Positions 23,085-51,266 of a stretch of 64,000 nt of DNA are shown here, one piece after another; positions within the stretch are counted from its first letter, which is position 1; each line of letters starts with the position of its first letter. The translations under genes and the position numbers were made by a program. The notes under the pieces were generated by a model, which made no database searches, had not been told where the DNA came from, and saw only the letters and a list, made by a program, of their open reading frames with translations. The stretch is taken from positions 865 through 64,864 of the IMG/VR virus record IMGVR_UViG_3300005937_000267; one strand, given 5' to 3'. The stretch comes from a virus (Duplodnaviria; Caudoviricetes).

Positions 23085-24107
23085 TCACGACTTCTCCTTC
23101 TGTTGGTCTCGGTAGTACCGCTCGTGCGGGTCTCTGTGCTCGTAGTGTCTCTCGATCAAGCCCTCCACGTTGCTGCCGTCGTCGAACAGCGGGCACGCCG
23201 CGAGGAAGTCGCACTTCCACGTGCAGTCGCGCGACGGCCTGGGCGGGCAGTGGTACTGGTGATCGCCCCCGCGGTCCAGCTCGTCGCGCGTGTCGACGAT
23301 CTCCTGCAGCACCTTGTGGACGCGCTGCCACGTAGTCGCGATGATCTTGCTGTTGTGCCTGACCTCGACCTGCTTGTAGAACGGCGGCCTCGCGGCGGCG
23401 GTGCGCTTGACTCGCCTCAGCATCAGGTACAGCGCGCCGTCGGTGCGCCACATCAGCGATCTTCCATCGTGATCTTGCCCGTCGCCCAGCTCGGTGTTGA
23501 CCTTGGCACGGTAGCGGGCGTCTAACTGCTCGAGCAAGTGATAGAACCTGGCCTGCTCGTCGAGGGGAAGCATCGCCTCCAGCTCTCCGAAGCTGCCCGT
23601 GGTCTTCCAGTCCCTGAACAGCCGGGCGCCGTCTGATCGTCTCTGGATGCGCTGATCGAGCATGCCGCGCATCTTGACGCCCGGGATGCCCGAGTCCACC
23701 TCGACGATCTCCTCCACGGAGACGACGTCGTACTCGGCGTCGATGGCGTTCTCGGCAGCCCACTCGAGGTACCCCTCCAGCATGGCGTGGGCGAGGTCCT
23801 GCTCCTCCTGAAGCTTAGTGATCTTGTCGTCCATCCCGACCTCGATCAACTTCTGGATGTCGTCGTAGTAGATCTCGTCGATGGCCTCGATGGGATTCAC
23901 GCCGCGCTCGTACATCGCCTGCAGCGCCGCGTGGATGCGGGCGCCGAGGTTGCGGACGCCGGTCGGGTCCTCGAGCTCGCGACGAAACCCGAGCTCGCGA
24001 TAGTAGGTGAGCCACCACCTGCGGCGGCAGTCCTTGAATGTCTGGATCTCGCTGTTCGAGATGCTCAAGATCGTCAGCGGCTGTCTGACGAGCGATGACT
24101 TGGTCAT
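23085..24107 (-). CDS. PD-(D/E)XK RecB/Cas4-like exonuclease
   Basis: ISNSEIQTFKDCRRRW, GARIHAALQ, RGMLDQR, RDWKT, C-terminal CxWxCxFxxxC. Confidence 0.85.
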   Translation of the reverse strand: MTKSSLVRQPLTILSISNSEIQTFKDCRRRWWLTYYRELGFRRELEDPTGVRNLGARIHAALQAMYERGVNPIEAIDEIYYDDIQKLIEVGMDDKITKLQEEQDLAHAMLEGYLEWAAENAIDAEYDVVSVEEIVEVDSGIPGVKMRGMLDQRIQRRSDGARLFRDWKTTGSFGELEAMLPLDEQARFYHLLEQLDARYRAKVNTELGDGQDHDGRSLMWRTDGALYLMLRRVKRTAAARPPFYKQVEVRHNSKIIATTWQRVHKVLQEIVDTRDELDRGGDHQYHCPPRPSRDCTWKCDFLAACPLFDDGSNVEGLIERHYEHRDPHERYYRDQQKEKS

Positions 24108-25936
24108 GCTGCCACTCCCAGAAGCTGTCGTATGAATGTCCTGTCGCGGACGACTTCCTCGAATCGCTCCGCCTTCATGAACAGCAGCTCGCGCTGCCGC
24201 TCCTCGATCGTCTCAGTGGACATGATGTCGATGATGTCGATCTGATCGTGGACCTCGGACCCGATCCGGTGGATGCGGTCCTCGGCCTGGCTGTTGTCGA
24301 TCTTGCTCCAGCTTCGCTGCAGAAAGATCGCGGTGCTGGCCCGAGTCAGCGTGATCCCGATGCCGCCGGCTGAGATCGTGCACAGCATGGCGCGCAGCCC
24401 ACCCGCCTGGAAGTCGCGGATGGCGATCTCGCGGTCGATGGCCGTCTGGTCTCCGGTGATCAAGCCGTACTTGATGCCAGCGGCGTCGAGTCGCTTGGCC
24501 GCTAAGTCGATCAGCTGCTTGTGGAGGGCGAACACGACGACCGGCGCGTCTCCCATGTCCTCCAAGATCTCCATCAGCGCGTCGATCTTGCAGCTCGGGT
24601 CGGACAGCCGGACGTCGCCGTTCTCCATCGCCGCGTGCGCGGACGCGAACTGCGTCAGCCTGGTGAGCTGGACGAGCGGGCTGGCCGCCACGACCACGCC
24701 GCCGTCCAGGTGCGCGATCATCTCCTTCTCCATCCGGCGATACGCCTGCGCCTGCTTGTGCGCCATCGTGACGTAGCGGGTGGAGTAGACCTTCGGCGGC
24801 AGCTGCTTGAGCACGGCCTCCTTCGGCATGCGGCGCATGATCGGATCGATGATCTTGTAGAACTCGGCGCGCCTCTCAGGATCCGGGCTCAGCCCTACGA
24901 CCTGCATCGGTCCGAAGGCGTTGAACGACAGGCGACAGAAGCGCTCGATGTACAGCTGGCGGGTCGGGAACTCGCGCGGCCTGATCAGCCGCAGCGCCGG
25001 CCACAGGTCGTGCGGCGCGTTGCCTATCGGGGTGCCCGTGAGGGCGAAGACGTAGCGGGCTGGCGCGATCTTGAACGTGGCGGACCCCTCGCGCAGCGCC
25101 CAGCAAGCGCGGGTCTGCTTGGCCTTCGGGTTCTTGAGCCGGTGCGCCTCGTCGACGACGATCGTCTGCCACGTCCGGTTCAGCTCCTTGCGGCAGTTCT
25201 CGCAGCGCGACTGGCTGTTGCTCTTGGTGTCCGCCAGCGTCGGGTCGCACACGATGCAGCGCTTCAGTCTGATGCTGCCGTACGCGGCCAGCCGCGAATG
25301 GGCGCGGACCGTCTCGTAGCTGATCACGTGGACGTGCGCCGGGGTCATGATCATCTCGCGCCGCTTGGCGGCTGGCGTCCCTCCCGGGATCGCCACGACC
25401 GTCATGCCCGGCCACCACCTGTCGAGCTCCCGCTGCCAGGTCAGGACCATGCTGTTCGGCGCGATCACGAGCGCCGGGAACGGGTTCTCGCCGCGGCGCA
25501 CGAGCTCCATGAACGTCCTGATCGTCTGGACGGTCTTGCCCAGCCCCATGTCGTCGCACAACAGGGCCTGCTCGGCGAACGCCATGAACTGGACGCCGGC
25601 GCGCTGGAACCCGTAGAGGTCCTCGTCGCCGGCGGCGTCGAGGGCGACCCGCAGCTCGAGGGCGGGCGCGATCCTGGCGGCGTGCTCCTCCCTGGCCCAG
25701 GCGTCCAGCGCGGGAGAGACCACCAGGCGGTCGCCGAATATCCCGCGCATGACGACGCACGACGCCCACGACAGCGGGGCCAGGAACCGGTGCTCCTTCT
25801 GGTTGTACCGGACGCCCGGGAGCTGCATGATCAAGTCTTTGTCGCGGAAGGGGAAGGGCGTGACGATGTTCATCAGCGACGGGTCGCGGTCGTACACGTC
25901 TATGGTGATCCCGTAGTCGTCCATTCTTCCTTCCAT
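24104..25936 (-). CDS. SNF2-family DNA helicase
   Basis: DDMGLGKTVQ, VVDEAH, LTGTPI, QAEDRIHRIG. Confidence 0.9.
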   Translation of the reverse strand: MEGRMDDYGITIDVYDRDPSLMNIVTPFPFRDKDLIMQLPGVRYNQKEHRFLAPLSWASCVVMRGIFGDRLVVSPALDAWAREEHAARIAPALELRVALDAAGDEDLYGFQRAGVQFMAFAEQALLCDDMGLGKTVQTIRTFMELVRRGENPFPALVIAPNSMVLTWQRELDRWWPGMTVVAIPGGTPAAKRREMIMTPAHVHVISYETVRAHSRLAAYGSIRLKRCIVCDPTLADTKSNSQSRCENCRKELNRTWQTIVVDEAHRLKNPKAKQTRACWALREGSATFKIAPARYVFALTGTPIGNAPHDLWPALRLIRPREFPTRQLYIERFCRLSFNAFGPMQVVGLSPDPERRAEFYKIIDPIMRRMPKEAVLKQLPPKVYSTRYVTMAHKQAQAYRRMEKEMIAHLDGGVVVAASPLVQLTRLTQFASAHAAMENGDVRLSDPSCKIDALMEILEDMGDAPVVVFALHKQLIDLAAKRLDAAGIKYGLITGDQTAIDREIAIRDFQAGGLRAMLCTISAGGIGITLTRASTAIFLQRSWSKIDNSQAEDRIHRIGSEVHDQIDIIDIMSTETIEERQRELLFMKAERFEEVVRDRTFIRQLLGVAA

Positions 25937-26426: not shown

Positions 26427-26794
26427 GGCTCGATCTCCGGCCTCGGACCGCGATCTTGGTCCGGCGGGCTCCACTTCTTGAAGAGCGCCGCTAGCGCCTG
26501 CTGGTACGTCGGCGCGGTGACGACCACGTAGTCCTCCATCTCGATCGTCAGCGTCGTCGTGTAGTGCGCCGGCCAGCGGTACCACGAGTCGTACGAGGTG
26601 AAGAACTCGTCCGCCTCGACCTCTAACATGGCCTGTGTCATCGAGGTGCTGGCGAAGACCAGCACGCAGTGCCCGTCGATCGGACCCGGAGGAATGCGGA
26701 CGCCGACGATCACGAACTCCGGCTGCTCGTGCGAGCTGAAGTTATCGAGTCGAATGCCCGGCGACCGGCCTTGGTAGCGGTCGACGTCACTCAT
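26423..26794 (-). CDS. Hypothetical protein
   Basis: 123 aa ORF overlapping both neighbours. Confidence 0.55.
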   Translation of the reverse strand: MSDVDRYQGRSPGIRLDNFSSHEQPEFVIVGVRIPPGPIDGHCVLVFASTSMTQAMLEVEADEFFTSYDSWYRWPAHYTTTLTIEMEDYVVVTAPTYQQALAALFKKWSPPDQDRGPRPEIEP

Positions 26795-28550
26795 ATTTCT
26801 GGCCCCAGCTCTTGTCGAGGATGTCTCCAGACCACGTGATCGGCACCGTGTAGTCCACGGCGTCGTTCATGATCTTCACCGACTCGCGGAGCACCTCGTC
26901 CGCGATGTCCTCCGGGACCTCCATGACGATCTCGTCGTGCACCGGCAGCACCATGAACTCGCCGAACCCGCGAGCGTCCAGCAGGCAGAGACAGAGCTTC
27001 AGGATCTCCGCGGCGTGACCGGAGATGAGGTAGTTCAGCAGCGTGTAGTCGCGGAGCTCGTCGGAGGGTAGTCTCCTGCCGTACGGGGTGATCACGTACG
27101 CGGCACCCTCGGCGCGCTTGCGCGCCATGCCGACGTCGTTGATCTCCCTCTGGAACCGCTCCACCCCGGGGAACTTCTCGTTGAAGATCGCGATGAACGT
27201 CTGCATCTGGTCGAGCGTGACGCGCGACGTCGCGGCCATGTTCGCGGCGCCGGCGCCGTAGATGCGTCCGTAGATCGTGTTCTTGGTGAGGTCGCGCCGG
27301 CGGTCGTCTTTCTGTAGCCCGGGATCGAGGAAGATCTGCCTGGCCAGCGCGACGAAGAAGTCCACGCTCTGGTCCGCGAACGCCGCGATCATGCCCGGGT
27401 CCTTGCTGAAGATCGCCATCAGCCGGGCCTCGATCTGGTCCGCGTCGATGGTGATCAGCACGTTGCCTGGTGCCGGAACGAACGCGTGCCTGATCGTAGG
27501 GTCCTTCTTGTGCAGGGTCTGGAGCGGCGGGTCGGTCACCGTCTGGCGCCCGTGCCTGGTGCCGAGGGACCAGATCGTCGCGTGCACCCGGCCGTCGGAG
27601 TCGGCGTCCGCCATGAAGCTGCGGAAGTACGTCCCGACCATCTTCCTCATCTTCCGGGCGCCTAGGATATACCGAGCGAGGTCGTGATCTATGAGCTCGA
27701 GCACCTCCTTGTCCCACGACTGCTTGCCGCCGGGCGTGTACTTGACCGGGACCTCGACGTCGAGTCGCTCGAACGCTCTTCCGATCTGATCGTTGGAGTC
27801 CACCGAGCGAATGCCGTGCTCGGCTGCGAGGTACTCGACGATCGCGCCGACCTTGTCTCCGAACTCGTGGATCTTCTGCTGGCAGTAGTCGAGGTCGACC
27901 AGCGCGCCCTTGCGCATCATGTTCGTGACCACGCGCAGCACCCCGATCTCCAGCCCGTACGCCTCGCGGCAGGAGCCGTTGATCGTCTCGTCCTTGAGCT
28001 TGTCATAGACGTACGCCGTGAGCACGGGATCCATCGCGGCGTACACGGCGTAGTCGGGAAGATCGTACGGCACGGTGGCGAACGTCCACTTGTGGACCGC
28101 CATCTTCTCGTCCAGAGTCCTCTGAGCCGCTGCCGCCGACGGGTCGACGTGCATGGCCGCGAACGCCTTCAGGTTCTTCGATCGCAGCGGATCCACCAGG
28201 TGCGCCATCGTCAGCGTGTCGTTGGTCCGGTCCCACGGCCAGTTGGCGATCTCGGGCGAGTTCTCCATGAGGAACTTGACGTCGAACGGCGAGTTGTGAA
28301 ACACGACCGGGCCGTCGTACCTCTTGATCGCCTCGACGGCCAGGCCCGACCACCGGTGCCACGGGATCGCCCACCCCTTCTCGAGATCGCCGAACTGCAC
28401 CATCCTCAGCGGGTCGCGCTTGTGGTCGAACCCGCCGGTCTCGGTGTCGATGCCGAGCACGTCTCGGCGGCGTCCCAGCCACTCCAGGAAGTCCGCGGCG
28501 TCGCCCATCGTGCGCACCAGTCGCAGGTCCACTATGTCCAAGACTCCCAT
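26787..28550 (-). CDS. DNA polymerase I (family A) with 3'-5' exonuclease
   Basis: IDTETGG, HNSPFD, YAAMD (exo I-III); DADQIEAR (A), KNTIYGRIYG (B), PVHDEI (C). Confidence 0.95.
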   Translation of the reverse strand: MGVLDIVDLRLVRTMGDAADFLEWLGRRRDVLGIDTETGGFDHKRDPLRMVQFGDLEKGWAIPWHRWSGLAVEAIKRYDGPVVFHNSPFDVKFLMENSPEIANWPWDRTNDTLTMAHLVDPLRSKNLKAFAAMHVDPSAAAAQRTLDEKMAVHKWTFATVPYDLPDYAVYAAMDPVLTAYVYDKLKDETINGSCREAYGLEIGVLRVVTNMMRKGALVDLDYCQQKIHEFGDKVGAIVEYLAAEHGIRSVDSNDQIGRAFERLDVEVPVKYTPGGKQSWDKEVLELIDHDLARYILGARKMRKMVGTYFRSFMADADSDGRVHATIWSLGTRHGRQTVTDPPLQTLHKKDPTIRHAFVPAPGNVLITIDADQIEARLMAIFSKDPGMIAAFADQSVDFFVALARQIFLDPGLQKDDRRRDLTKNTIYGRIYGAGAANMAATSRVTLDQMQTFIAIFNEKFPGVERFQREINDVGMARKRAEGAAYVITPYGRRLPSDELRDYTLLNYLISGHAAEILKLCLCLLDARGFGEFMVLPVHDEIVMEVPEDIADEVLRESVKIMNDAVDYTVPITWSGDILDKSWGQKYE

Positions 28551-39699: not shown

Positions 39700-40073
39700 T
39701 CGAGCTGCTGGGCACGGCGATGGTGACGATGGTCGTCGTCGCCTGGTCTCTGCTCGGCGCGTACGGCCTGCTCCGGCTCCGGTCGGACCTCGCGGCGCGG
39801 AGACCGAGGCCGAGGCCGAGGCCGGCGATCCCTGGCGATCGCGCGTCCCCGTGTCGCGACTGCGGGACGCTGATCATGGTCGAGCAAGAGTCATGGAACT
39901 GGCAGCTGGTCGACGAGCTGAGCTGGACCGAGACCGAGGACGAGTTACGCGGTGATGATCAGATCATCACGACCAAGGGCAAGTGGGAGCTGGACGAGAC
40001 CGCGCAGCGCTGCGACCTCTGCTCCGCGATCAGGCGCGCTGAGCTCGAGTACTACGGGTTCACCCGATCATGA
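39696..40073 (+). CDS. Membrane-anchored CxxC...CxxC protein carrying copied SSB and major-tail peptides
   Basis: TM helix; CRDC and CDLC flank VEQESWNWQ and LSWTETED-ELRGDDQIITTKGK-WEL. Confidence 0.75.
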   Translation: MIELLGTAMVTMVVVAWSLLGAYGLLRLRSDLAARRPRPRPRPAIPGDRASPCRDCGTLIMVEQESWNWQLVDELSWTETEDELRGDDQIITTKGKWELDETAQRCDLCSAIRRAELEYYGFTRS

Positions 40074-41374
40074 CTCGCCGCGTCGGCCCGACGCTGGAGG
40101 GCTCCCTCGCCGAGTGGCAGGAGGGGGAGACCACCCTCAGGGAGCTCGTCGGCGAGAAGGTGCGCCGGTTCTGCTGGGCGACGATCCCGCCGCTCAGCGT
40201 CGCGACGATGATCACCGGGACGATCGGGTGGGCCAAGTACCGGCTCGAGCAGACGATCAGCAGCGAGGAGCTCGCGACGATCATGACGCGAGTTGCGATG
40301 CTCGGCGTGCCGGGTCTCTCGGTGACCGTGGGCGTGCTGCTCATGTACGGCATGCACCTGGCCGAGACCATGCCGCCCATGTTCCTGGAGGAGGTCGCGC
40401 CGCTGGGTCCGAGGCGCTCGCCGGGAGACCTCGAGTCGTGGGAGCACTGGCTGTACCGGGGCGTGCGGGTCGGCCGCTGGCAGAGCCTGGACGGGTCGGG
40501 GAGAGCGGGCGCGATCGCCCGGATCCCGATCATGGACGAGCACGTGTTCGTCGCGGCGCGCACCCGGTGGGGGAAGTCCACCGTGGAGTGGGCGATTCTG
40601 GAGGACCTCGAGGAGGCGATCAAGCAGGGCGTCGTGCGGGTGATCTTGTTCGACCCGAAGAACGGCATGGAGATGGCCGCCGCGGTCAACCTCAAGTACG
40701 TCGCCCAGAGCGACTTCTACTTCGGCGAGGACGTCGGCGAGGTCGACCCTCACACGGGCAAGTGGGAGGGCCAGCTCTACGAGGAGACGTTCGTCAAGCC
40801 GCTCGAGGACCTGGTGCGCGAGATGCGCCGGCGCGCGGACAGGATCAGGTTCAAGGACCGCAGGCACCACGCGAAGCCGGGCGACCCGCACATCATCGTC
40901 ATGGTCGACGAGCTCGCCCAGCTGGTCCGCGAGACCACGCCGACTCCGGTCAAGAACCGGATCACCAACGCGATCTTGACGCTGTGCCACCAGGGCGCGG
41001 CCTGCGGCATCACGGTGATCGGCTGCACGCAGCACCCGAGCATCGAGGAGATCGGCCCGATCCGCCACGGCCTGACGTTCGGGCTGTGCGGCAAGGTCAA
41101 GTCGGCGAAGGCCGTGGACATGGTGCTCGGCGAGGGGAGCCGCCGGCTCGGCTCGAGGGCGGACAAGCTGGACCGGGAGATCACAGGCGTGTGGTACACC
41201 TCGGAGTCCGGGCCGATGGCGCTGCGCGCCCAGCACTCGGGTCCCGAGTTCGGCGAGGACGAGCCCCCGCCGGCCGACCGGCGACCGCCGCCGAGCGAGC
41301 GGGACGAGGAGGCGGCGGACCGGCTGTGGGAGCGCATGCGGTCGCGGCGCGCGGCTGATCGGATGGCGGCGTGA
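40070..41374 (+). CDS. FtsK/SpoIIIE (TraB-like) DNA translocase ATPase
   Basis: Two N-terminal TM helices; ARTRWGKS Walker A, ILFDPKNGME, IIVMVDE Walker B, GAACGITVIGCTQHP. Confidence 0.8.
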   Translation: MTRRVGPTLEGSLAEWQEGETTLRELVGEKVRRFCWATIPPLSVATMITGTIGWAKYRLEQTISSEELATIMTRVAMLGVPGLSVTVGVLLMYGMHLAETMPPMFLEEVAPLGPRRSPGDLESWEHWLYRGVRVGRWQSLDGSGRAGAIARIPIMDEHVFVAARTRWGKSTVEWAILEDLEEAIKQGVVRVILFDPKNGMEMAAAVNLKYVAQSDFYFGEDVGEVDPHTGKWEGQLYEETFVKPLEDLVREMRRRADRIRFKDRRHHAKPGDPHIIVMVDELAQLVRETTPTPVKNRITNAILTLCHQGAACGITVIGCTQHPSIEEIGPIRHGLTFGLCGKVKSAKAVDMVLGEGSRRLGSRADKLDREITGVWYTSESGPMALRAQHSGPEFGEDEPPPADRRPPPSERDEEAADRLWERMRSRRAADRMAA

Positions 41375-41829
41375 GCGCGGGCAGCAAGATCAGAGGGCGC
41401 GAGTACGTCGAGCTGCTCGAGGAGGTCGCGTCCGGCATGCCGCACGAGGAGATCGCGGAGCGCCACGGCCGGGCGTGGGGGACGATCGACAACTTCGCCA
41501 GCCAGCACCGGCGAGAGATCGAGGACCTCAAGGCGGCGCACGCGAGCGCGATCAGCCACCTGTGGATCACGCGCATGGAGCTCAGAGTCAGCGAGGCGAT
41601 GGCCCGGCACGAGGCGCTGACCGAGATGTTCTGGGAGATCATGGAGCCGGGGGGAAGGGGAGACAAGATCATCTCCCAGCCCGACGCGATCAAGCTCAGC
41701 GCGGAGCTGCGCGCGCTCGAGACCCAGGTCGCGGAGGAGTGCGGGCAGCGCCAGACGCGCGCGAAGAACGACGGCGGCCTGCCGGACGCGGTGGTGTGGA
41801 AGATCACGCAGGTGCCCGACCATGGCTGA
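41371..41829 (+). CDS. Terminase small subunit-like HTH protein (second copy)
   Basis: N-terminal HTH (PHEEIAERHGRAWGTIDNF), helical middle, directly upstream of TerL-like gene. Confidence 0.55.
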   Translation: MSAGSKIRGREYVELLEEVASGMPHEEIAERHGRAWGTIDNFASQHRREIEDLKAAHASAISHLWITRMELRVSEAMARHEALTEMFWEIMEPGGRGDKIISQPDAIKLSAELRALETQVAEECGQRQTRAKNDGGLPDAVVWKITQVPDHG

Positions 41830-43132
41830 GCACGAGTACGAGGCGCGCGGCCCGCACAGCAAGATCTTCGGCATGACGGACCGCGAGGTGCTGCTGTCCG
41901 GGCCGGCGAGCACCGGCGCCGACCGGGCGATCATGGAGAAGCTCGCGACGTGCGCCATGACGCACCGGGGCTTCCGCGGGCTGATCGTCCGCAAGGTGGA
42001 GAAGTCGCTGGCTCTCACGGTGATCCCGATCCTGGAGCGCAGGGTGCTCAGGGAGCTGATCGCGAGCCGCGGGGTGAAGTTCTTCAACGCCAGCACCAGG
42101 GAGCCGCAGCGGTACGAGTTCGGCAACGGGTCGGTGATCGTGGTCACCGGCATCGACGACTCGAGGAAGATCGCGGGCAGCGAGTGGGACATGGTCTGCG
42201 TGGTCAACGCGACGGACCTCGACCTGGTGGACTGGGAGGACCTGTCGATGAGCTGCTCCGGCGACGCCATGGGGTACACCCAGCTGATCGCGTGCACGCT
42301 CCCGGACAAGCCCGGACACTGGCTGAACCAGCGCTGCCGGGAGGGTCGGACGATCATGCTCGACTCCCGGCACGAGGACAACCCGGAGATCTACGCGCGG
42401 GCGGACGGGCACCTCAAGATCACGGACCACGGCCGCGTGATCTTGTCCAGGCTCAACGACCTCACCGGCGTGAACCGCTCGAGGAAGGCGCTCGGGCTGT
42501 GGGTGGACGCCGAGGGGATGATCTGGGAGAAGTGGGACCCGGCCATCCATCTGATCAACGACTACCCGCCGCCGATCGACTGGGCGCGGGTGTGGGGCGT
42601 CGACTGGGGCACCAAGCACCCGTGCGCGTGGGGTAACTGGGTGCGCGAGCCCGACGGCCGGATGACCGAGTACCAGGAGATCCTGATGACCGGCTGGACG
42701 GTCGAGCAGCTCGCCGAGACCATCCTGGACGCCACCACTCGGGACGGCCAGCCCAGACCCGAGGCGATCGTGGCGGACCACGACCTCGAGAACATCGCGA
42801 AGCTCGAGAAGATCTTGGCGCGGGAGTGGGGCTTCGAGTACGAGGTCACGCTCGCCAGGAAGGCCGTGAAGGCCGGCATCGACGCGTTCGCGAAGCGGCT
42901 CAAGAACCACGACGTCGCCGTCATGCGCGGAGCTCCGCTCTTCAGGGATCCCGCCCTGCTGGAGATGCAGCGCCCGACGTGCCTGGCCGAGCAGATCCCG
43001 TCGTACGTCTGGGCGGACGGCGGCAGGGACCAGCCGCTGAAGAGGGACGACGACTCCTGCGACCAGGCGCGGTACGTGATCATGTACGAGGACGCGGCCA
43101 CGGGTCGCTGGGTGAGGATGCGGGGAAGATGA
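41822..43132 (+). CDS. PBSX-type terminase large subunit paralog with degenerate ATPase motifs
   Basis: EVLLSGPASTGAD (GTGKS expected), LIVRK, FGNGSVI, VCVVNAT (xxE expected), SRHEDNP, GVDWG, DDSCDQARY. Confidence 0.8.
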   Translation: MAEHEYEARGPHSKIFGMTDREVLLSGPASTGADRAIMEKLATCAMTHRGFRGLIVRKVEKSLALTVIPILERRVLRELIASRGVKFFNASTREPQRYEFGNGSVIVVTGIDDSRKIAGSEWDMVCVVNATDLDLVDWEDLSMSCSGDAMGYTQLIACTLPDKPGHWLNQRCREGRTIMLDSRHEDNPEIYARADGHLKITDHGRVILSRLNDLTGVNRSRKALGLWVDAEGMIWEKWDPAIHLINDYPPPIDWARVWGVDWGTKHPCAWGNWVREPDGRMTEYQEILMTGWTVEQLAETILDATTRDGQPRPEAIVADHDLENIAKLEKILAREWGFEYEVTLARKAVKAGIDAFAKRLKNHDVAVMRGAPLFRDPALLEMQRPTCLAEQIPSYVWADGGRDQPLKRDDDSCDQARYVIMYEDAATGRWVRMRGR

Positions 43133-43208: not shown

Positions 43209-43571
43209 ATGGCGGGGAGCACGACCAACGGTCAGGAGGACTTCGCTGCCGTGCTGCAGGAGCGCGGCGAGCACATGCGCAGGCCCGGCAGGCGGTACGT
43301 GACCAGAGACCACCCGCAGATGGGGCTGCGGGGCGAGCTCAGAGAGATCGAGGACGTTCAGATGGTACTGGGCGATCGTCCGGTGGAGGACAGGGGCAGC
43401 GGTGCCAGGGCGGATGCCATACCGGCCCGCCCTGGCGTCGCGCACGACGCCCGGGGGTTCGGCGCGCCGTTCCAAGTCTGGGCGATCGACCCCGAGACGA
43501 TCGAGGGGATGGAGATCGTCGAGCGGGCGTGGCCGATAGTCGATCGCGACCCGCGAGGGAGGCTCCCGTGA
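43209..43571 (+). CDS. Hypothetical protein
   Basis: ATG after GAGAGGAAG RBS. Confidence 0.5.
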   Translation: MAGSTTNGQEDFAAVLQERGEHMRRPGRRYVTRDHPQMGLRGELREIEDVQMVLGDRPVEDRGSGARADAIPARPGVAHDARGFGAPFQVWAIDPETIEGMEIVERAWPIVDRDPRGRLP

Positions 43572-43749: not shown

Positions 43750-43894
43750 AACACAGAGGACCCGCGACCCGCCGGACGGTAGAGTTCCGTCGGAGCCGGC
43801 CGCCCTACCCCCGGGGGAAGAGCCGCTCCTCGTCTGGCGGGTCGCGCTTGCTCGGGTCCACGGCTGGCGCGGCTCGCCGCGATATGATCTCATC

Positions 43895-44383
43895 GTGGCC
43901 GTTCCCAGCTTCAGCGAGATGTACGCCTCCGTGCAGGAGGGCCGGCGCGCGCTGACCCGTCCCCAGCAGTTCGCGCGAGGCTTGATCACGACGGACGACC
44001 TGGACGACGAGGAGCTCGCCCGGCAGCAGGTGCGCGAGGACGACGGGTCGTTCTCCCGGACGCGTCCCGCCATGCCGACCGACAGGATCAGCGAGATGCA
44101 GCGGGCGCTGCTGGCTCGCGGGAACGACGTGTTCAAGCGGGCGTTCATCAAGGCGACCGAGACGATGATGGAGATCTGCACAGATCCGAACGTCGAGGCG
44201 AGGACCCGGCTGGCGGCCGCGAAGATGATCGTCGACAAGGTGGCCCCGACCGCCACGGTGATCGAGATCAAGCCGAGCGACCCGGTGATCGAGTTCTTCC
44301 GCGGGATCACGGAAGACGGCGCGACGGAGACGATCAGTGGTACGATCGTCCCGGACGTGCCCGAGATCACCACAGGAGACTAG
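43895..44383 (+). CDS. terS: Terminase small subunit
   Basis: DDLDDEELAR...DDGSF motif of actinophage TerS; upstream of intact TerL. Confidence 0.6.
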   Translation: MAVPSFSEMYASVQEGRRALTRPQQFARGLITTDDLDDEELARQQVREDDGSFSRTRPAMPTDRISEMQRALLARGNDVFKRAFIKATETMMEICTDPNVEARTRLAAAKMIVDKVAPTATVIEIKPSDPVIEFFRGITEDGATETISGTIVPDVPEITTGD

Positions 44384-44584
44384 ATGGCCGGCGAGTTCGT
44401 ACCCGATCCCCCTCACAGTCAAGATCAAGAGGCGAAGAAGCTGCTCCGTCGCAACGCGGGAGGCCGCGGCTCGGCGACTAAGCCCGCCCCCCAGCTCACC
44501 AAGTCCAACGGGCGCGTGGGCGCCAGGGTCGGCGGCAGGCGGGTGGCCTCCGGCGCGACCACCGTGCGTGGCGGCGCTTGGTAG
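44384..44584 (+). CDS. Small basic hypothetical protein
   Basis: Fills gap between terS and terL. Confidence 0.4.
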   Translation: MAGEFVPDPPHSQDQEAKKLLRRNAGGRGSATKPAPQLTKSNGRVGARVGGRRVASGATTVRGGAW

Positions 44585-46052
44585 CCGCGCGACGCTCCTC
44601 CCCCCGCGGGTCGTAACCGAGGACTTCGCGTACCGCAAGATCAACTGGCGACCGCACGAGGGCCAGCGTCGCGTGATCGACGCGCGGGTGCGCAACCGGG
44701 TGCTGGCGGCCGGCAGGCGGTTCGGCAAGAGCGAGATCGGCGGCACCAAGCTCGTCCACGAGGCGATGAACACCCGGCTCGCGGTCTCGATGCTGGAGGA
44801 CCTCGGCAAGCGCCGCGAGTTCTGGATCATCGGGCCGACGTACACCGACTCCGAGAAGGAGTTCCGGGTCATGTACAACTCCCTCTCCAAGATCGGGATC
44901 GCGGACTACTTCGACCGGCCCGGGACGTACAACGACCCCATCGGCGGCAACATGCACGCCAGCCTGTGGGGAGGCCGGTTCCAGGTCCACGCCAAGAGCG
45001 CCCAGCACCCCGAGAGCCTCGTCGGAGAGGGTCTGTCGGGGGCGATCCTAGCGGAGGCCGCGAAGCTCAAGGAGACCGTCTACAGCAGGTTCATCCGGCC
45101 CACTCTCGCCGACTTCAACGGCTGGTGCCTGATGACCTCGACCCCGGAGGGCAAGAACTGGTTCTATGAGATGTGGCGCCGCGGCCAGGACCCAAAATAC
45201 GCCGACTGGTGGAGCCTCAGAGCCCCCGCCTGGCTGAACCCCTACGTCTACCCCGGCGGAGGGTCCTTCGACGCGGTCGAGCGGTACCGGGAGCTGTTCC
45301 TCGCGGGGGCGCCCCGCGATCACGTCGAGATAGACGCCGAGATCGCGGCACTCGTCGAGGACCTGACCGACGAGGCTTTTGACCAAGAGATCGGAGCCGA
45401 CTTCACTACCTTCGTCGGCAGGGTCTTCAAGGAGTTCGACGAAGAGATCCACGTCACTGACCTCGAGTACGTGCCGGGGTGGCCCACGTACGCCGCGGTG
45501 GACTACGGCTTCACCAATCCTAACGTGTGGTTGCTCATCCAGGAGGACCCTCACGCCGAGATCGTCAACGTGCTCGGCGAGGTGTACCAGCCCGGGCTGG
45601 CTCCGGACGAGTTCGCGGACGAGATCATCTCCCGGCGACTGTGCCCCGGAGACGTGATCGCGTTCTACCCGGACCCGGCGTCCCCGGGGGACACCGCGAT
45701 CCTGGAGAAGAAGCTCAGGATCCGGCACCGGGGGAGCACCGGCGGGGAGATCAAGTTCCGGATCGACGCCATCCGCAAGTGGATGCGGTGGAAGCATCCC
45801 CACCTGCCGCACGACCACGAGGAGAACCGTCCCAAGCTCCAGTTCGACAGGTCGTGCGTGCGCACGATCATGGACATGCTGAACTACCGGTACGCCCAGA
45901 AGAGGAGCGAGACCACCGGCGAGCCGGAGAATCCGATGAAGAGAGACGATCACGGCCCGGAGGCTCTCGGACGATTCTTCGCGGGAAGGTTCGGAACCCC
46001 GGATAGGGTAGCCCGCAGGCCGAGACAGAGGAGGGCGTCGATCAGTGGTTGA
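44568..46052 (+). CDS. terL: Terminase large subunit
   Basis: AAGRRFGKS Walker A, ILAEAA Walker B, TSTPEG, AVDYGFTNP, DDHGPEAL; followed by portal. Confidence 0.92.
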   Translation: MAALGSRATLLPPRVVTEDFAYRKINWRPHEGQRRVIDARVRNRVLAAGRRFGKSEIGGTKLVHEAMNTRLAVSMLEDLGKRREFWIIGPTYTDSEKEFRVMYNSLSKIGIADYFDRPGTYNDPIGGNMHASLWGGRFQVHAKSAQHPESLVGEGLSGAILAEAAKLKETVYSRFIRPTLADFNGWCLMTSTPEGKNWFYEMWRRGQDPKYADWWSLRAPAWLNPYVYPGGGSFDAVERYRELFLAGAPRDHVEIDAEIAALVEDLTDEAFDQEIGADFTTFVGRVFKEFDEEIHVTDLEYVPGWPTYAAVDYGFTNPNVWLLIQEDPHAEIVNVLGEVYQPGLAPDEFADEIISRRLCPGDVIAFYPDPASPGDTAILEKKLRIRHRGSTGGEIKFRIDAIRKWMRWKHPHLPHDHEENRPKLQFDRSCVRTIMDMLNYRYAQKRSETTGEPENPMKRDDHGPEALGRFFAGRFGTPDRVARRPRQRRASISG

Positions 46053-47550
46053 TCTTTCTCCCTACGCGACCGCGAAGCCGCTGTTCGGGGTGCTGCCGAC
46101 GTGGCTGTCCGAGGCCGACGCGGCGCGCGTCGAGGCCTACGCTCTGTACGAGGGCATGTACCGCAACGTTCCGGACGCCTACAAGATCATCCAGCGGGGC
46201 AGCGAGTCGAACCCGATCTACGTGCCGTGCGCGAAGACGATCGTCGAGGCGACCAACCGCTACCTCGCGAAGGACTGGACGTTCGTCGCGGATCCCAGAC
46301 TTGGCACTGATAGCGAGCGGGCGATGATCCAGCAGGTGCTCACCCCGCTGTTCCGTCGCGAGCGGGTGTGGTCCAAGTTCGCCAGCCAGAAGCGCTACGG
46401 CCTGATCAGGGGAGACACGTGCTGGCACATCATCGCCGATCCCGATCTCCCGCAGGGCAAGCGGATATCGATCATGGAGCTCGACCCGGCCTCGTACTTT
46501 CCGATCTACGACCCGGAGGACGACACCAAGCGCGTCGGCTGTCACATCGTAGAGATCAGGACGAACGACAAGAACGAGTCCATGATCAAGAGACAGACCT
46601 ACCGCAAGGACCCAGCCAGCGGGACGATCACCCACGAGGCCACGTGGTGGGAGCTCGGCGCCTGGGACGACCGGAACATGGATCCCAAGGATCTGAAGAA
46701 GGCGAAGAACCCCCCCGTTCCCGCCGTACCGGAGCATCCGCTGCCGCCGGGGATCACAGCTCTGCCGGTCTACCACATCAGGAACGACCCAGCTCCGAGA
46801 GATCAATTCGGAGTCTCCATCCTGGCCGGGCTCGAGCGGATCGCCGCCGCGGTCTCGCAGGTAATCAGCGACCAAGAGATCGAGCTGGCCCTCTCGGGGC
46901 TGGGTCTGTACGTCACTACCAGCGGACCGCCGGTGGACGAGAGCGGGAACGAGACGAGGTGGAAGATCGGTCCGGGCTACGTCGCCGAGATCGACCCCGA
47001 GGCTGACTGGAAGCGCGTCAGCGGCGTGGCCAGCGTGGATCCCAACCTCGATCACGCTCGGTACCTGGAGCAGAAGATCCAGCAGGCGGCGGGCGTGCCC
47101 GACATCGCCGTCGGCGAGGTGGACGTCTCGGTCGCCGAGTCGGGGATCTCGCTGGCGTTCAAGATGTCTCCGATCTTGGCCAGTAACTCCGAGCGCGAGG
47201 GCGAGATGCTCGGCGTCTACGACCAGATGCTGTACGACGTCTCGCGCGGCTGGCTGCCGGCGTACGAGTCGATAAACTTCGGCGAGGCGGCCACCGCGGT
47301 GTCGATCGTCAGCGACCCTATGCCGATCAACCGAGAGGCTTTCCTGAAGGAGATCGGCGTCATGATCGACAAGGGCATCATGAGCGTCGAGTACGCCCGC
47401 GTGTTGATCAGCGAGAAGCTCGGCCTCGAGTTCCCGGCGACCATGGGCGAGCAGGTCGTCGCCGAGCAGACGGCTCTGGCCGCCGCGCGCAACGCTGACC
47501 CGTTCGAGGCCAGGATCGCGAGGGAGCTGACCGGTGTCGAAGCGGCGTAA
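46045..47550 (+). CDS. Portal protein
   Basis: 501 aa after TerL; GLIRGD, PVYHIRN, GVPDIAVG, SGISL portal-like motifs. Confidence 0.85.
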   Translation: MVDLSPYATAKPLFGVLPTWLSEADAARVEAYALYEGMYRNVPDAYKIIQRGSESNPIYVPCAKTIVEATNRYLAKDWTFVADPRLGTDSERAMIQQVLTPLFRRERVWSKFASQKRYGLIRGDTCWHIIADPDLPQGKRISIMELDPASYFPIYDPEDDTKRVGCHIVEIRTNDKNESMIKRQTYRKDPASGTITHEATWWELGAWDDRNMDPKDLKKAKNPPVPAVPEHPLPPGITALPVYHIRNDPAPRDQFGVSILAGLERIAAAVSQVISDQEIELALSGLGLYVTTSGPPVDESGNETRWKIGPGYVAEIDPEADWKRVSGVASVDPNLDHARYLEQKIQQAAGVPDIAVGEVDVSVAESGISLAFKMSPILASNSEREGEMLGVYDQMLYDVSRGWLPAYESINFGEAATAVSIVSDPMPINREAFLKEIGVMIDKGIMSVEYARVLISEKLGLEFPATMGEQVVAEQTALAAARNADPFEARIARELTGVEAA

Positions 47551-49656: not shown

Positions 49657-50040
49657 GTGGCTGCGCGCTATGACAAGTACGACCCCATCTCTGGCGGATT
49701 CCGAGCCCCACTGAACGCTGACTGGCTTGACGCCGACGTCGGCATCCCGTTCGCGGTAGGGCTGAACGCCAGCGGCAAGGTCGTGAAGGGCGCCGGGACC
49801 ACCGGCGTCAGGGCAGTCCTCGTGGTCGACGCCATCGGCAAGAAGGCGAACGACATCGTCGACTGCATGACTGCCGGGGAGATCGTCGACGTCACGTCGC
49901 CGGCTCTCGCCGCCGGCACTAAGTACGCTGGTGTAGCGGCCACGGGAGTGATCGCGGCGACGGGCGTCGGGTCCGAGGTCGGATTCACTGTCGAGGCGAC
50001 TCGACTGATCGTTAGGACTAGCGGGGTGGCGACGACATGA
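49657..50040 (+). CDS. Capsid decoration/cement protein
   Basis: 127 aa, G/A/V-rich, ARYDKYDPISGGFRAPL, upstream of MCP. Confidence 0.7.
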   Translation: MAARYDKYDPISGGFRAPLNADWLDADVGIPFAVGLNASGKVVKGAGTTGVRAVLVVDAIGKKANDIVDCMTAGEIVDVTSPALAAGTKYAGVAATGVIAATGVGSEVGFTVEATRLIVRTSGVATT

Positions 50041-51266
50041 TCACGCGCAATCCATTCGGTTCCTCGATCTACGGTGTTCCGCCGACCGCGCTAGATCTGA
50101 ATCTCGAGAAGATCAAGCTTCTCCGTTCGCTCGGTCTGATCCCGCAGATCGCCGGCGGCGCGTACGGCTACAACGCGGCCGCCGACATCCTCGGTCAGAC
50201 CGCCGACGGTCGCGATCTCAATGAGATCTGGGCCGAGTTCCAAGCCACGCTGGCGATCCAGAACGAGTCGCGCCAGCGGCTCATCGATCTTCTGACGTTC
50301 CCCGTCACGAACATCATCGAGGACGTCCCGCAGTTCGGCGGCGGCGACTTCGAGGAGATGTCCGAGTACGGCGTCCCGAAGTCGATCAGGCCCGTCGGGT
50401 CCGTGCTGCAGCTCGGCTACACGTTCAAGTGGTACGACCTGGCGGCGAGGTTCACGTGGCTGTTCCTGGCGGACGCCAGCGCAGCGCAGGTGGACGCCGT
50501 GCACCAGGCGGCGCTCGACGCCGACAACCGGCTCGTCTTCCTAGAGGTCATGCGATCGCTGTTCCGGAACACCAACCGGACGACCAACATCAGGAACCAG
50601 AACTACAACGTGTACACGTTCTGGAACGGCGACGGCAACGTGCCGCCGTCGTACAAGAACACCACGTTCACCGGTACGCACACCCACTTCCGCAACTCGG
50701 GCGCGGCGACCATCGACTCTGGTGATCTCGAGGAGATGATCGACGATCTCAAGTCGCACGGCTACTCGCAGGAGAACGGCACCACGCTCTACGCCTTGAC
50801 CAACGAGGCTCAGGCGAACGTGATCAGGACGTTCCGACAGGGGCAGACGAACAACAACGGCGCCGTGGCGCGCTGGGACTTCATCCCGGCGGCCAACCAG
50901 CCGGCCTTCATCGTGCCGACCACGATGGCGGTAGTCGGCGGCCAGGTGCCGGGCACGTTCCGCGGCTTCAACGTGGTCGGGAACTACGGTCCCGCGGTGA
51001 TCGTCGAGGAGTCCTACATCCCGGCTGGCTACGTCGTGCTGCTGGGATCCGGCGGCGAGGCGAACCTGCAGAACCCCATCGGGTTCCGCGAGCACGCCAA
51101 CGCCGCTCTCCGCGGGCTCCGGCTCGTGCAGGACAAGCAGTCGGACTACCCGCTGATCGACTCGTACTACGTGCGAGGCTTCGGCACCGGAGTGCGGCAG
51201 CGGGGCGCGGGCATGGTGATGAAGATCAGCGCCGGCGCCTACTCGGTCCCGACTCAGTACGCATAG
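50037..51266 (+). CDS. Major capsid protein
   Basis: 409 aa after scaffold; FEEMSEYGVP, QLGYTFKWYD, GFGTGVRQRGAG. Confidence 0.88.
   Translation: MITRNPFGSSIYGVPPTALDLNLEKIKLLRSLGLIPQIAGGAYGYNAAADILGQTADGRDLNEIWAEFQATLAIQNESRQRLIDLLTFPVTNIIEDVPQFGGGDFEEMSEYGVPKSIRPVGSVLQLGYTFKWYDLAARFTWLFLADASAAQVDAVHQAALDADNRLVFLEVMRSLFRNTNRTTNIRNQNYNVYTFWNGDGNVPPSYKNTTFTGTHTHFRNSGAATIDSGDLEEMIDDLKSHGYSQENGTTLYALTNEAQANVIRTFRQGQTNNNGAVARWDFIPAANQPAFIVPTTMAVVGGQVPGTFRGFNVVGNYGPAVIVEESYIPAGYVVLLGSGGEANLQNPIGFREHANAALRGLRLVQDKQSDYPLIDSYYVRGFGTGVRQRGAGMVMKISAGAYSVPTQYA

Follow-up and report, generated by a model that had tools for sequence, protein, structure and literature searches.

Introduction

Large terminase subunits (TerLs) of the Terminase_3/PBSX type are known from actinophages (P1312, Dagobah, Mischief19; D6E, 5OE8), and in the D6E terminase the residue E143 and the trans-acting finger R158, which stands 15 residues further on, are each indispensable for ATP hydrolysis (PMC5727402). 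Here, we analysed a TerL-like gene of this kind, encoding the protein P0001, in a virus of the Caudoviricetes (IMG/VR record IMGVR_UViG_3300005937_000267). The window, i.e. the whole stretch of DNA analysed, comprises 64,000 nucleotides (positions 865 to 64,864) and represents nearly all of the 64,864-bp record, which CheckV rates as complete. P0001 shows 36-41% full-length identity with the Terminase_3/PBSX TerLs and shares with them the two-domain fold, the lid motifs HWL..R and RHEDNP, the nuclease acidic residues and an overlapping small subunit (TerS) homologue directly 5′. Unlike these enzymes, P0001 has its Walker A Lys and Ser/Thr, catalytic Glu, RxR finger and C-motif Asn all replaced, presents an EWGF insertion and no Pfam match, and is not encoded beside a portal gene, in a genome that has a separate complete packaging TerL. 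Hydrolysis-dead TerL mutants constructed in the laboratory (D6E E143A and R158A; PMC5727402) are changed at the same positions, whereas the changes of P0001 arose naturally, affect several motifs and are fixed and selected in a whole clade.

The gene of P0001 is the last of a trio, after those of an FtsK-like ATPase (P0026) and the TerS homologue (P0027), and two described systems resemble this set. HerA-NurA, a hexameric translocase and its nuclease that process DNA ends, offers an analogy of an FtsK-superfamily ATPase and a separate nuclease of RNase H-like fold encoded side by side. In the trio the nuclease would come from a TerL and not from NurA, the ATPase is predicted to be membrane-anchored, and a putative DNA-binding TerS homologue is the third partner, linked to the others by gene coupling. 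The TraB-type translocases of actinomycete plasmids and of actinomycete integrative and conjugative elements present, as P0026 does, an N-terminal membrane anchor and an FtsK/SpoIIIE ATPase domain; P0026 differs in an identity of only 25-30% over the core, in the lack of a C-terminal winged helix-turn-helix and of clt-like repeats in the searches made, and in being carried by a lytic-looking phage.

Results

P0001 is a large terminase homologue with a degenerate ATPase centre and a conserved nuclease centre

The original prediction had described an intact 436-residue TerL-like open reading frame (ORF) in addition to the canonical TerL, and the translation, the GC content at third codon positions (GC3) and full-length homology bear out the former. 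The frame is free of stops, and its GC3 is 0.97 compared with 0.65 for the genome (overall GC content 65%); it is therefore coding. In tblastn searches the TerL of Thermobifida phage P1312 matches 98% of P0001 with 41% identity; for the TerLs of the Streptomyces phages Dagobah and Mischief19 the identity is 36-38%.

The AlphaFold2 model of P0001 (mean predicted local distance difference test score 88.7) has whole large terminases as its best Foldseek matches, with the D6E TerL 5OE8 as top match in the PDB (E 2e-24), followed by the proteins of Sf6, T4 and HK97 (E 2e-24 to 4e-12 for the four). Single domains were matched as well: the nucleases of P22, SPP1 and G20c and the ATPase domains of T4 and P74-26. 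The predicted structure contains both an N-terminal ATPase domain of the additional-strand, conserved-glutamate (ASCE) class with its lid and a C-terminal RNase H-like nuclease domain. Pfam and NCBIfam gave no match to P0001 at E <= 0.1, not even with Terminase_3. The earlier label 'PBSX-like' holds in that relatives carry PF04466, and fails in that P0001 itself does not match it at this threshold. The PHROG matches are to terminase families only and lie in the C-terminal half alone, which suggests that the ATPase half of P0001 is atypical. Neither P0001 nor P0027 is matched by any PADLOC defence-system model.

We then compared P0001 and nine close relatives (the clade, n = 10) with 114 active-looking relatives of 380-520 residues. 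The Walker A Lys (position 33) and the following Ser/Thr (position 34) are both present in 111/111 aligned active relatives, against 1/10 and 2/10 clade members, respectively. The catalytic Glu column (position 129, equivalent to E143 of D6E; PMC5727402) holds Glu in 102 and Gln in 11 of the 114 active relatives, and Glu in none of the ten clade members. The multi-nucleotide change at the Walker A Lys and the Asn for Glu in Walker B, on which the original prediction was built, were both recovered at the codon level (Table 1). To these motifs the alignment adds two further losses, of the RxR finger and of the D..N C-motif: Arg144 and Arg146 are each found in 108/114 active relatives and Asp158 and Asn160 in 98/114 and 113/114, and all four are absent from the ten clade members.

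The three acidic motifs said to persist in the nuclease domain are all in place. Asp261 is conserved in 114/114 active relatives and Asp414 in 111/114, and both are kept in 10/10 clade members. Reading two more clade members from the loci L016 and L025 brings the clade to 12 proteins, all intact, in which D261, D319 and D414 are kept in 12/12 and D321 in 11/12. The nuclease domain carries in addition a clade-specific insertion, L(S/A)REWGF, of which S333, W336 and G337 are found in at least 9/10 clade members, in columns that are gapped in 107-110 of the 114 active relatives.

A conservation of 85% or more in the active relatives is reached by 63 positions; the clade keeps 54 of them (in at least 9/10 members) and has lost nine. 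The ATPase centre accounts for seven of the losses (K33, S119, E129, R144, R146, D158 and N160), so that, with 54 of 63 positions kept, the loss looks targeted. The kept positions include G27, G32, R57, K58 and D123, the lid motifs HWL..R and RHEDNP, and D261, D319, D321 and D414. Besides the insertion, the clade gained further invariant positions of its own. Taken together, the conserved-residue data show that P0001 lacks every residue class needed for ATP hydrolysis and retains the predicted fold, the lid subdomain and a complete RNase H-like nuclease centre. By these residues P0001 would be nuclease-competent, and the motor-less nuclease, one of the options originally proposed, fits the 12/12 and 11/12 conservation of the acidic residues as well as the concentration of the losses in the ATPase centre.

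The alignment yielded two further observations. Eleven otherwise normal active TerLs have Gln at the catalytic Glu column followed by A-E-E (e.g. VNQAEEL), which suggests a shifted catalytic Glu in this subfamily, where motif-based 'dead' calls need care. In the L025 copy (L025:10034-11434), some 20 residues of low-complexity (NGG)n sequence are inserted at the junction of lid subdomain and linker; the rest of this protein is intact and has the dead motifs of the clade.

The ATPase-dead clade is rare, of single origin and under purifying selection

The ten clade proteins are mutually 46-82% identical, and the intact relatives assigned to the clade stand at 48-82% identity. In the maximum-likelihood tree the dead clade is monophyletic (SH-aLRT 100) and sits on the longest internal branch (0.69), which by phylogeny shows a single origin of this crown clade. 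The ratio of non-synonymous to synonymous rates (omega) was taken from pairs of 81-82% identity, and comparisons of the window with its relatives are unreliable, as dS exceeds 1 (near saturation). In these pairs the NG86 method gives an omega of 0.15-0.26 and YN00 one of 0.08-0.16. The dead ATPase half (N-terminal) and the nuclease half (C-terminal) behave alike, within 0.08-0.29 over both methods in the closest pairs. The decay that the original prediction had named as a refutation is not seen in the homologues, which are intact and show an omega of 0.10-0.26 for both domains in the closest pairs. These codon comparisons show purifying selection on both domains of the dead TerL, and not decay.

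The dead TerL evolves faster than the packaging genes of the same phages. In the same genome pairs, omega is 0.22-0.36 for the dead TerL and 0.07-0.12 for the canonical TerL and portal, i.e. 2-4 times more non-synonymous change, and the canonical TerL is 82-87% conserved among phages whose dead TerLs are only 48-56% conserved. The TerS homologue is only 28-40% identical between phages with head genes 82-87% identical.

The relatives are all metagenomic. Among 1.84 billion cluster representatives one alone (P0003) stands for the dead clade, after which the score falls from 803 to 441 bits; close loci amount to three in IMG/VR and one in JGI metagenomes. A search of 185,579 species, each represented by one genome, found no prophage or cellular copy, and the 24-kb region gave no megablast match to GenBank phages. 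The sole public sequencing run with the phage sequence is rhizosphere metagenome DNA, probably the origin of the record, and no RNA run among the public runs contains it. The dead-TerL lineage is rare.

P0001 is encoded in a three-gene operon with a TerS homologue and an FtsK-like ATPase

The original prediction had taken the gene as a lone paralogue; it appears instead as half of a captured TerS-TerL pair in a three-gene operon. The stop of the P0026 gene overlaps the start of the P0027 gene by 4 nucleotides, and the latter overlaps the start of the dead TerL gene by 8 nucleotides. The order FtsK-like protein (376-534 residues), protein of about 150-173 residues and dead TerL recurs in 9/9 crown-clade loci that reach upstream, and both overlaps hold in the window and most loci. 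Counting a distant lineage (L028), the trio is present in 10/10 loci with upstream sequence. In the clade loci the canonical TerS, a gene of 64-66 codons, the canonical TerL (493-498 residues) and the portal come 4-6 kb further downstream. The gene arrangement shows a trio that is always start/stop-coupled and, as predicted from it, always co-transcribed.

The P0027 profile matches the TerS-position protein of locus L030 with an hhalign probability of 97.2% (E 3.8e-11). This locus holds an active Terminase_3 module (TerS-position protein, TerL, Phage_portal, ClpP protease and capsid gene) whose TerL shares 41% identity with the dead TerL and has GKS, E, RLR and TNP all present. BLASTP links P0027 also to the TerS-position protein of phage Dagobah (E 4e-5), and a tail motif, AEE(C/L)GQ..R..N.G, is common to the three proteins. 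In the AlphaFold2 model, helices are predicted at residues 10-45, 47-91 and 99-123, which form an N-terminal three-helix helix-turn-helix (HTH) and a long helical hairpin, with a disordered tail after them. In Foldseek the small terminases of Sf6 (ranked first) and G20c head the matches, yet with E values of 0.2-1.3 that are not significant. Pfam gave weak matches to HTH_23, HTH_28, Sigma70_r4 and Terminase_5; PDB sequences, searched with the profile, yielded nothing but spurious matches at the level of pentatricopeptide repeats and sigma factors, and tblastn against GenBank phages gave none. Because of the hhalign match to L030 and the BLASTP match to Dagobah, P0027 is identified, by homology, as a TerS homologue, which makes the dead TerL one half of a complete, putatively captured TerS-TerL pair.

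P0026 presents two N-terminal hydrophobic segments, a Walker A motif RWGKST and a Walker B motif MVDE. It matches PHROG 1358 (FtsK/SpoIIIE-like; E 2.9e-16) and, weakly, Pfam FtsK_SpoIIIE, and 15 homologues all have the residues G168, K169, D280, E281, Q321 and R332. Almost no relatives are found among GenBank phages; the closest non-phage ones are FtsK/SpoIIIE proteins of small actinomycete plasmids (e.g. Micromonospora rosaria pMR2 and plasmids of Nonomuraea, Pseudonocardia and Streptosporangium), with 25-30% identity over the ATPase core. This class of plasmid proteins includes the TraB-type motors of double-stranded DNA conjugation. By its sequence, P0026 combines a putative membrane anchor with an FtsK/SpoIIIE ATPase domain whose Walker A and B motifs appear intact, as expected of a TraB-type protein. 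Its PADLOC matches are to generic FtsK-type models only (mad8 and SspH).

The distant lineage (L028:2354-5597, Logan contig SRR11673796_139864) has the same trio, directly upstream of and including the TerL-like protein P0064. Its FtsK-like protein is 40% identical to P0026 (E 8e-90), its TerS-like protein matches P0027 with an hhalign probability of 97.3%, and P0064 is 36% identical to P0001. Since the trio persists at 36-40% identity, the three-gene association is, to judge from these sequences, old. P0064 has an intact Walker A Lys (GPLGTGKT); its catalytic Glu is replaced by Ala and its C-motif Asn by Glu, and the RxR is missing. P0005, which branches close to the base of the main clade, also retains GKS and has no catalytic Glu. 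As both proteins keep the GK and have no Glu, the hydrolysis residues (Glu, Arg finger) were apparently lost first and the P-loop later. In the tree P0064 groups on a long branch with the active-looking P0045, for whose relatives in IMG/VR no FtsK-like neighbour was found. P0033 and P0035 are further active-looking sister sequences. With the grouping of P0064 and P0045 one and two ATPase losses are both possible, and P0064 may stand for an intermediate stage of evolution or for a separate loss.

The phage encodes its own canonical terminase

The window holds, as had been foreseen, a second, canonical TerL at about 44.4-46.05 kb; it lies beside the portal (Table 1). The portal that follows it is the only one in the window, and the neighbour of P0001 is the TerS homologue. 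The true start of the canonical TerL is probably near 44.57-44.63 kb. Its ATPase matches that of the P74-26 TerL (E 4e-16). Micrococcus phage Kurnik encodes a single TerL, to which the canonical TerL is 56% identical and with which it has the motifs GRRFGKSE, ILAEAA, VDYGFTNP and KRDDHG in common. Kurnik has the same head module and no second terminase, and the head genes of the window resemble those of Kurnik and of Gordonia phages. The canonical TerS is 68-70% identical in related phages. By its sequence, the set of canonical Terminase_6-type TerS, TerL and portal looks complete. Because the canonical TerL shares the motifs of Kurnik's sole TerL and is conserved at 82-87%, the dead TerL is probably not needed for packaging.

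A split terminase, with the ATPase in the canonical TerL and the nuclease in the dead one, was considered and rejected, as the Kurnik enzyme and the canonical TerL agree in Walker A, in the AE of Walker B and in the nuclease motifs. The canonical TerL family ends its Walker B strand in Ala-Glu in place of Asp-Glu (ILAEAA; also L003:10543-12042), an ending shared by Kurnik (IVAEAA), where the P74-26 TerL has ILDEAA.

Table 1 Coordinates of the features of the window
Feature	Position	Strand	Basis or remark
Primase/D5 helicase	12587-14833	-	left 35-kb block
SNF2 helicase	24104-25936	-	left 35-kb block
PolA	26787-28550	-	left 35-kb block
Putative membrane-anchored FtsK/TraB-like ATPase, 434 aa (P0026)	40070-41374	+	PHROG 1358, weak Pfam FtsK_SpoIIIE
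Predicted TerS homologue, 152 aa (P0027)	41371-41829	+	hhalign to L030, BLASTP to Dagobah
Predicted ATPase-dead, nuclease-intact TerL homologue, 436 aa (P0001)	41822-43132	+	tblastn, AlphaFold2/Foldseek, alignment
Degenerate P-loop GPASTGAD (Lys to Ala33, Ser/Thr to Asp34)	41900-41923	+	codon at the Lys position is GCC (Ala), 41918-41920
Walker B strand DMVCVVNAT (catalytic Glu to Asn129)	42188-42214	+	AAC codon at 42206-42208
Lost arginine-finger motif (family R-L-R-N to S-C-S-G)	42245-42265	+	alignment
Lost C (coupling) motif (family A-D-C/T-N-P to A-C-T-L-P)	42287-42304	+	alignment
Nuclease motif 1, GVDWG (Asp261)	42596-42610	+	aligns to D6E TerL DYG motif
Nuclease motif 2, ADHD (Asp319, Asp321)	42773-42784	+	both kept in 10/10 clade members of the alignment
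Clade-specific insertion L(S/A)REWGF, nuclease domain	42809-42835	+	alignment columns
Nuclease motif 3, DDSCD (Asp414), then RY	43049-43063	+	aligns to D6E motif
120-aa ORF	43209-43571		single ORF between dead TerL and canonical TerS
Imperfect 23-nt inverted repeat	43756-43853		83% complementary, arms 52 nt apart, intergenic
Canonical TerS	43895-44383	+	PHROG 10899 (terminase small subunit), E 2.7e-17
Canonical Terminase_6-type TerL	44337-46052	+	Pfam Terminase_6N; PHROG 2, E 4e-44
Portal	46045-47550	+	PHROG 64, E 2.7e-35
MuF-like protein, 291 aa	47985-48860	+	
Major capsid protein	50037-51266	+	

The left 35 kb of the window consists of minus-strand genes, among them those for replication functions. 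Plus-strand genes start at about 36.7 kb, with small genes first (one of them for a bPH_2 membrane protein), then the trio and then the packaging/head block, in the order TerS, TerL, portal, MuF-like protein and major capsid protein. In related phages the stretch between dead TerL and canonical TerS is variable and carries nucleotide-metabolism genes: PF04447 dATP/dGTP pyrophosphohydrolase, Nuc_deoxyrib_tr and a faint YAcAr (L001:13097-13564, L009:7296-7619, L011:3636-4130, L002:4324-4770). These genes may tie in with a DNA-modification chemistry of the phage group. The inverted repeat of the window, directly 5′ of the canonical TerS, could be a regulatory or packaging-initiation element. The MuF-like head-morphogenesis gene 3′ of the portal encodes 539 residues with Zeta_toxin/AAA_33 kinase-like matches in a relative (L001:19145-20764), and its shorter counterpart in the window is without such matches.

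Discussion

The homology data point to the dead TerL and P0027 as a second terminase pair, probably captured from a Terminase_3 (PBSX/HK97-like) actinophage lineage by a phage whose own packaging enzyme is of the unrelated Terminase_6 type, and the combination of this pair with an FtsK-like pump suggests that a terminase was reassigned to another DNA-handling job. Our leading explanation, held tentatively and at a little under an even chance, is an exapted terminase holoenzyme, i.e. a TerS-guided nuclease with the FtsK-like protein as its motor, acting outside capsid packaging. The tail of a TerS normally binds the N-terminal domain of the TerL. In the present pair, P0027 would bind DNA through its HTH and dock on the dead ATPase domain, which would survive as a scaffold and TerS-docking platform. 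The nuclease domain of the dead TerL would cut without ATP and would be the selected activity, and the membrane-sited FtsK-like hexameric motor would supply the ATP-driven DNA movement that the TerL lost. Candidate substrates would be foreign or host DNA for destruction, or phage DNA for moving. P0026 keeps an invariant GKST, DE, Q321 and R332 where the TerL lost the same functions, and the chemistry of the two proteins would thus be complementary. The predicted membrane siting, the fast evolution and the location in an accessory island 3′ of the strand switch fit a conflict function, such as the destruction of host or incoming DNA or interference with rival Terminase_3 phages.

Several observations weigh against this explanation. 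The translational coupling of the trio shows co-expression, which is not proof of a complex, and the nuclease activity is read from the conserved residues only. In one of these residues the L016 copy (L016:10001-11314) is altered, with Glu for D321 and Y-D-S-E-N replacing C/A-D-H-D, the sole member changed at a nuclease position. The C-terminus of P0026 is rich in Pro and acidic residues and has no domain match, hence no recognisable DNA-binding winged HTH, and the role of this protein could be unrelated. A search of 39.6-43.9 kb for the repeats of a pac- or clt-like cis site gave no repeat family, only short repeats at chance level. Finally, the trio evolves 2-4 times faster than the head genes at non-synonymous sites, which also fits a conflict protein such as an inhibitor or a decoy.

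The speed of this evolution, with its marked divergence of the TerS homologue relative to the head genes, recalls an arms race, and would suit a dead pair that poisons the pentameric motors of rival Terminase_3 actinophages with hydrolysis-dead subunits as a dominant negative or cuts their pac/cos sites without packaging. Such interference is supported by the closest active relatives, which are the working terminases of other actinophages, by the retained fold and TerS-docking features, and by the basal P0005 and P0064, which hold the Walker A Lys without the catalytic Glu like a classic trap mutant. It nevertheless leaves the obligatory FtsK-like partner unexplained; a poison subunit needs no four invariant nuclease residues, the crown clade is without the P-loop Lys and without the arginine finger that normally mediates ring contacts, and no target phage is known. 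We consider interference between phages unlikely. An ATP-independent, structure-specific nuclease that debranches the concatemers of the phage itself, in place of a RusA-, RuvC- or EndoVII-type resolvase and with the FtsK-like protein functionally separate, appears rather unlikely. The TerL nuclease domain does have an RNase H/RuvC-like fold, the model matching the P22, SPP1 and G20c nucleases, and the gene lies directly 5′ of the packaging genes; slight support comes also from the 64.9-kb genome, which gave no Pfam match to RusA, RuvC or Endonuclease_7, although missing Pfam matches are weak evidence for the absence of a resolvase. A resolvase, however, needs no sequence-reading TerS partner, the coupling to FtsK in 10/10 loci does not follow from it, and related phages that share this head module, Kurnik among them, do without a dead TerL. 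A motor of TraB-like ancestry would also be compatible with DNA transfer between cells. The trio as a capsid-independent transfer machine, in which the TerS homologue would read a phage site, the dead TerL would cut there and leave a free double-stranded end and the membrane-embedded TraB/FtsK-like motor would pump this end across a membrane or septum, is given a small probability. If it held true, a phage of filamentous or chain-forming actinobacteria could spread its genome between compartments, as Streptomyces plasmids do. A variant of this idea, by analogy with HerA-NurA, would be a machine at the membrane that draws in and degrades host DNA or DNA entering the cell.

As an immune decoy, an abundant and harmless TerL-shaped protein would titrate the terminase-sensing STAND/Avs receptors. 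The recognised fold is kept, to judge from the Foldseek match between the model and the terminase (PhiV-1) in the Avs3 complex 8DGC (E 3.5e-10), and the fast evolution would agree with it. Recognition by Avs3 reportedly involves the ATPase and nuclease active sites, of which the former is destroyed in the dead TerL. Avs proteins bind the target fold directly (PMC13581612) and are activated by this binding, so that a faithful mimic would trigger immunity rather than block it. Moreover, the intact nuclease centre, the TerS partner and the FtsK-like ATPase would all be superfluous, and our search of the open-access literature for terminase decoys and for second, dead or pseudo-enzyme terminases returned nothing relevant; a decoy is very unlikely. 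That the gene is a decaying, functionless relic of a replaced packaging module is scarcely credible. The position 5′ of the newer packaging module, the lost ATPase motifs and a rate above that of the core genes would be expected of a relic. Against it stand the 12 intact ORFs across lineages with near-saturated synonymous sites, the omega of 0.1-0.3 in both domains, the 54 of 63 family-conserved positions kept and the clade-specific invariant positions gained, together with a synteny that holds to 36-40% identity. Neutral decay is contradicted by these signs of selection.

Terminases are regarded as single-purpose packaging enzymes, whereas here a whole pair seems to have dropped its ATP motor and kept the nuclease, the fold and the TerS partnership under selection. 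This motor-less state lasted while two lineages diverged to 36-40% identity, always with an FtsK-type pump. The clade represents a natural separation-of-function allele set of TerL, and the trio, with its putative viral nuclease and plasmid-type DNA translocase, is a candidate for a new phage accessory system. Annotation calls for caution, as pipelines would label the dead TerL 'terminase large subunit', which affects terminase phylogeny and the prediction of packaging strategy. If the motor-swap or the DNA-transfer explanation is true, phage packaging would be linked to the conjugation machinery of actinomycetes.

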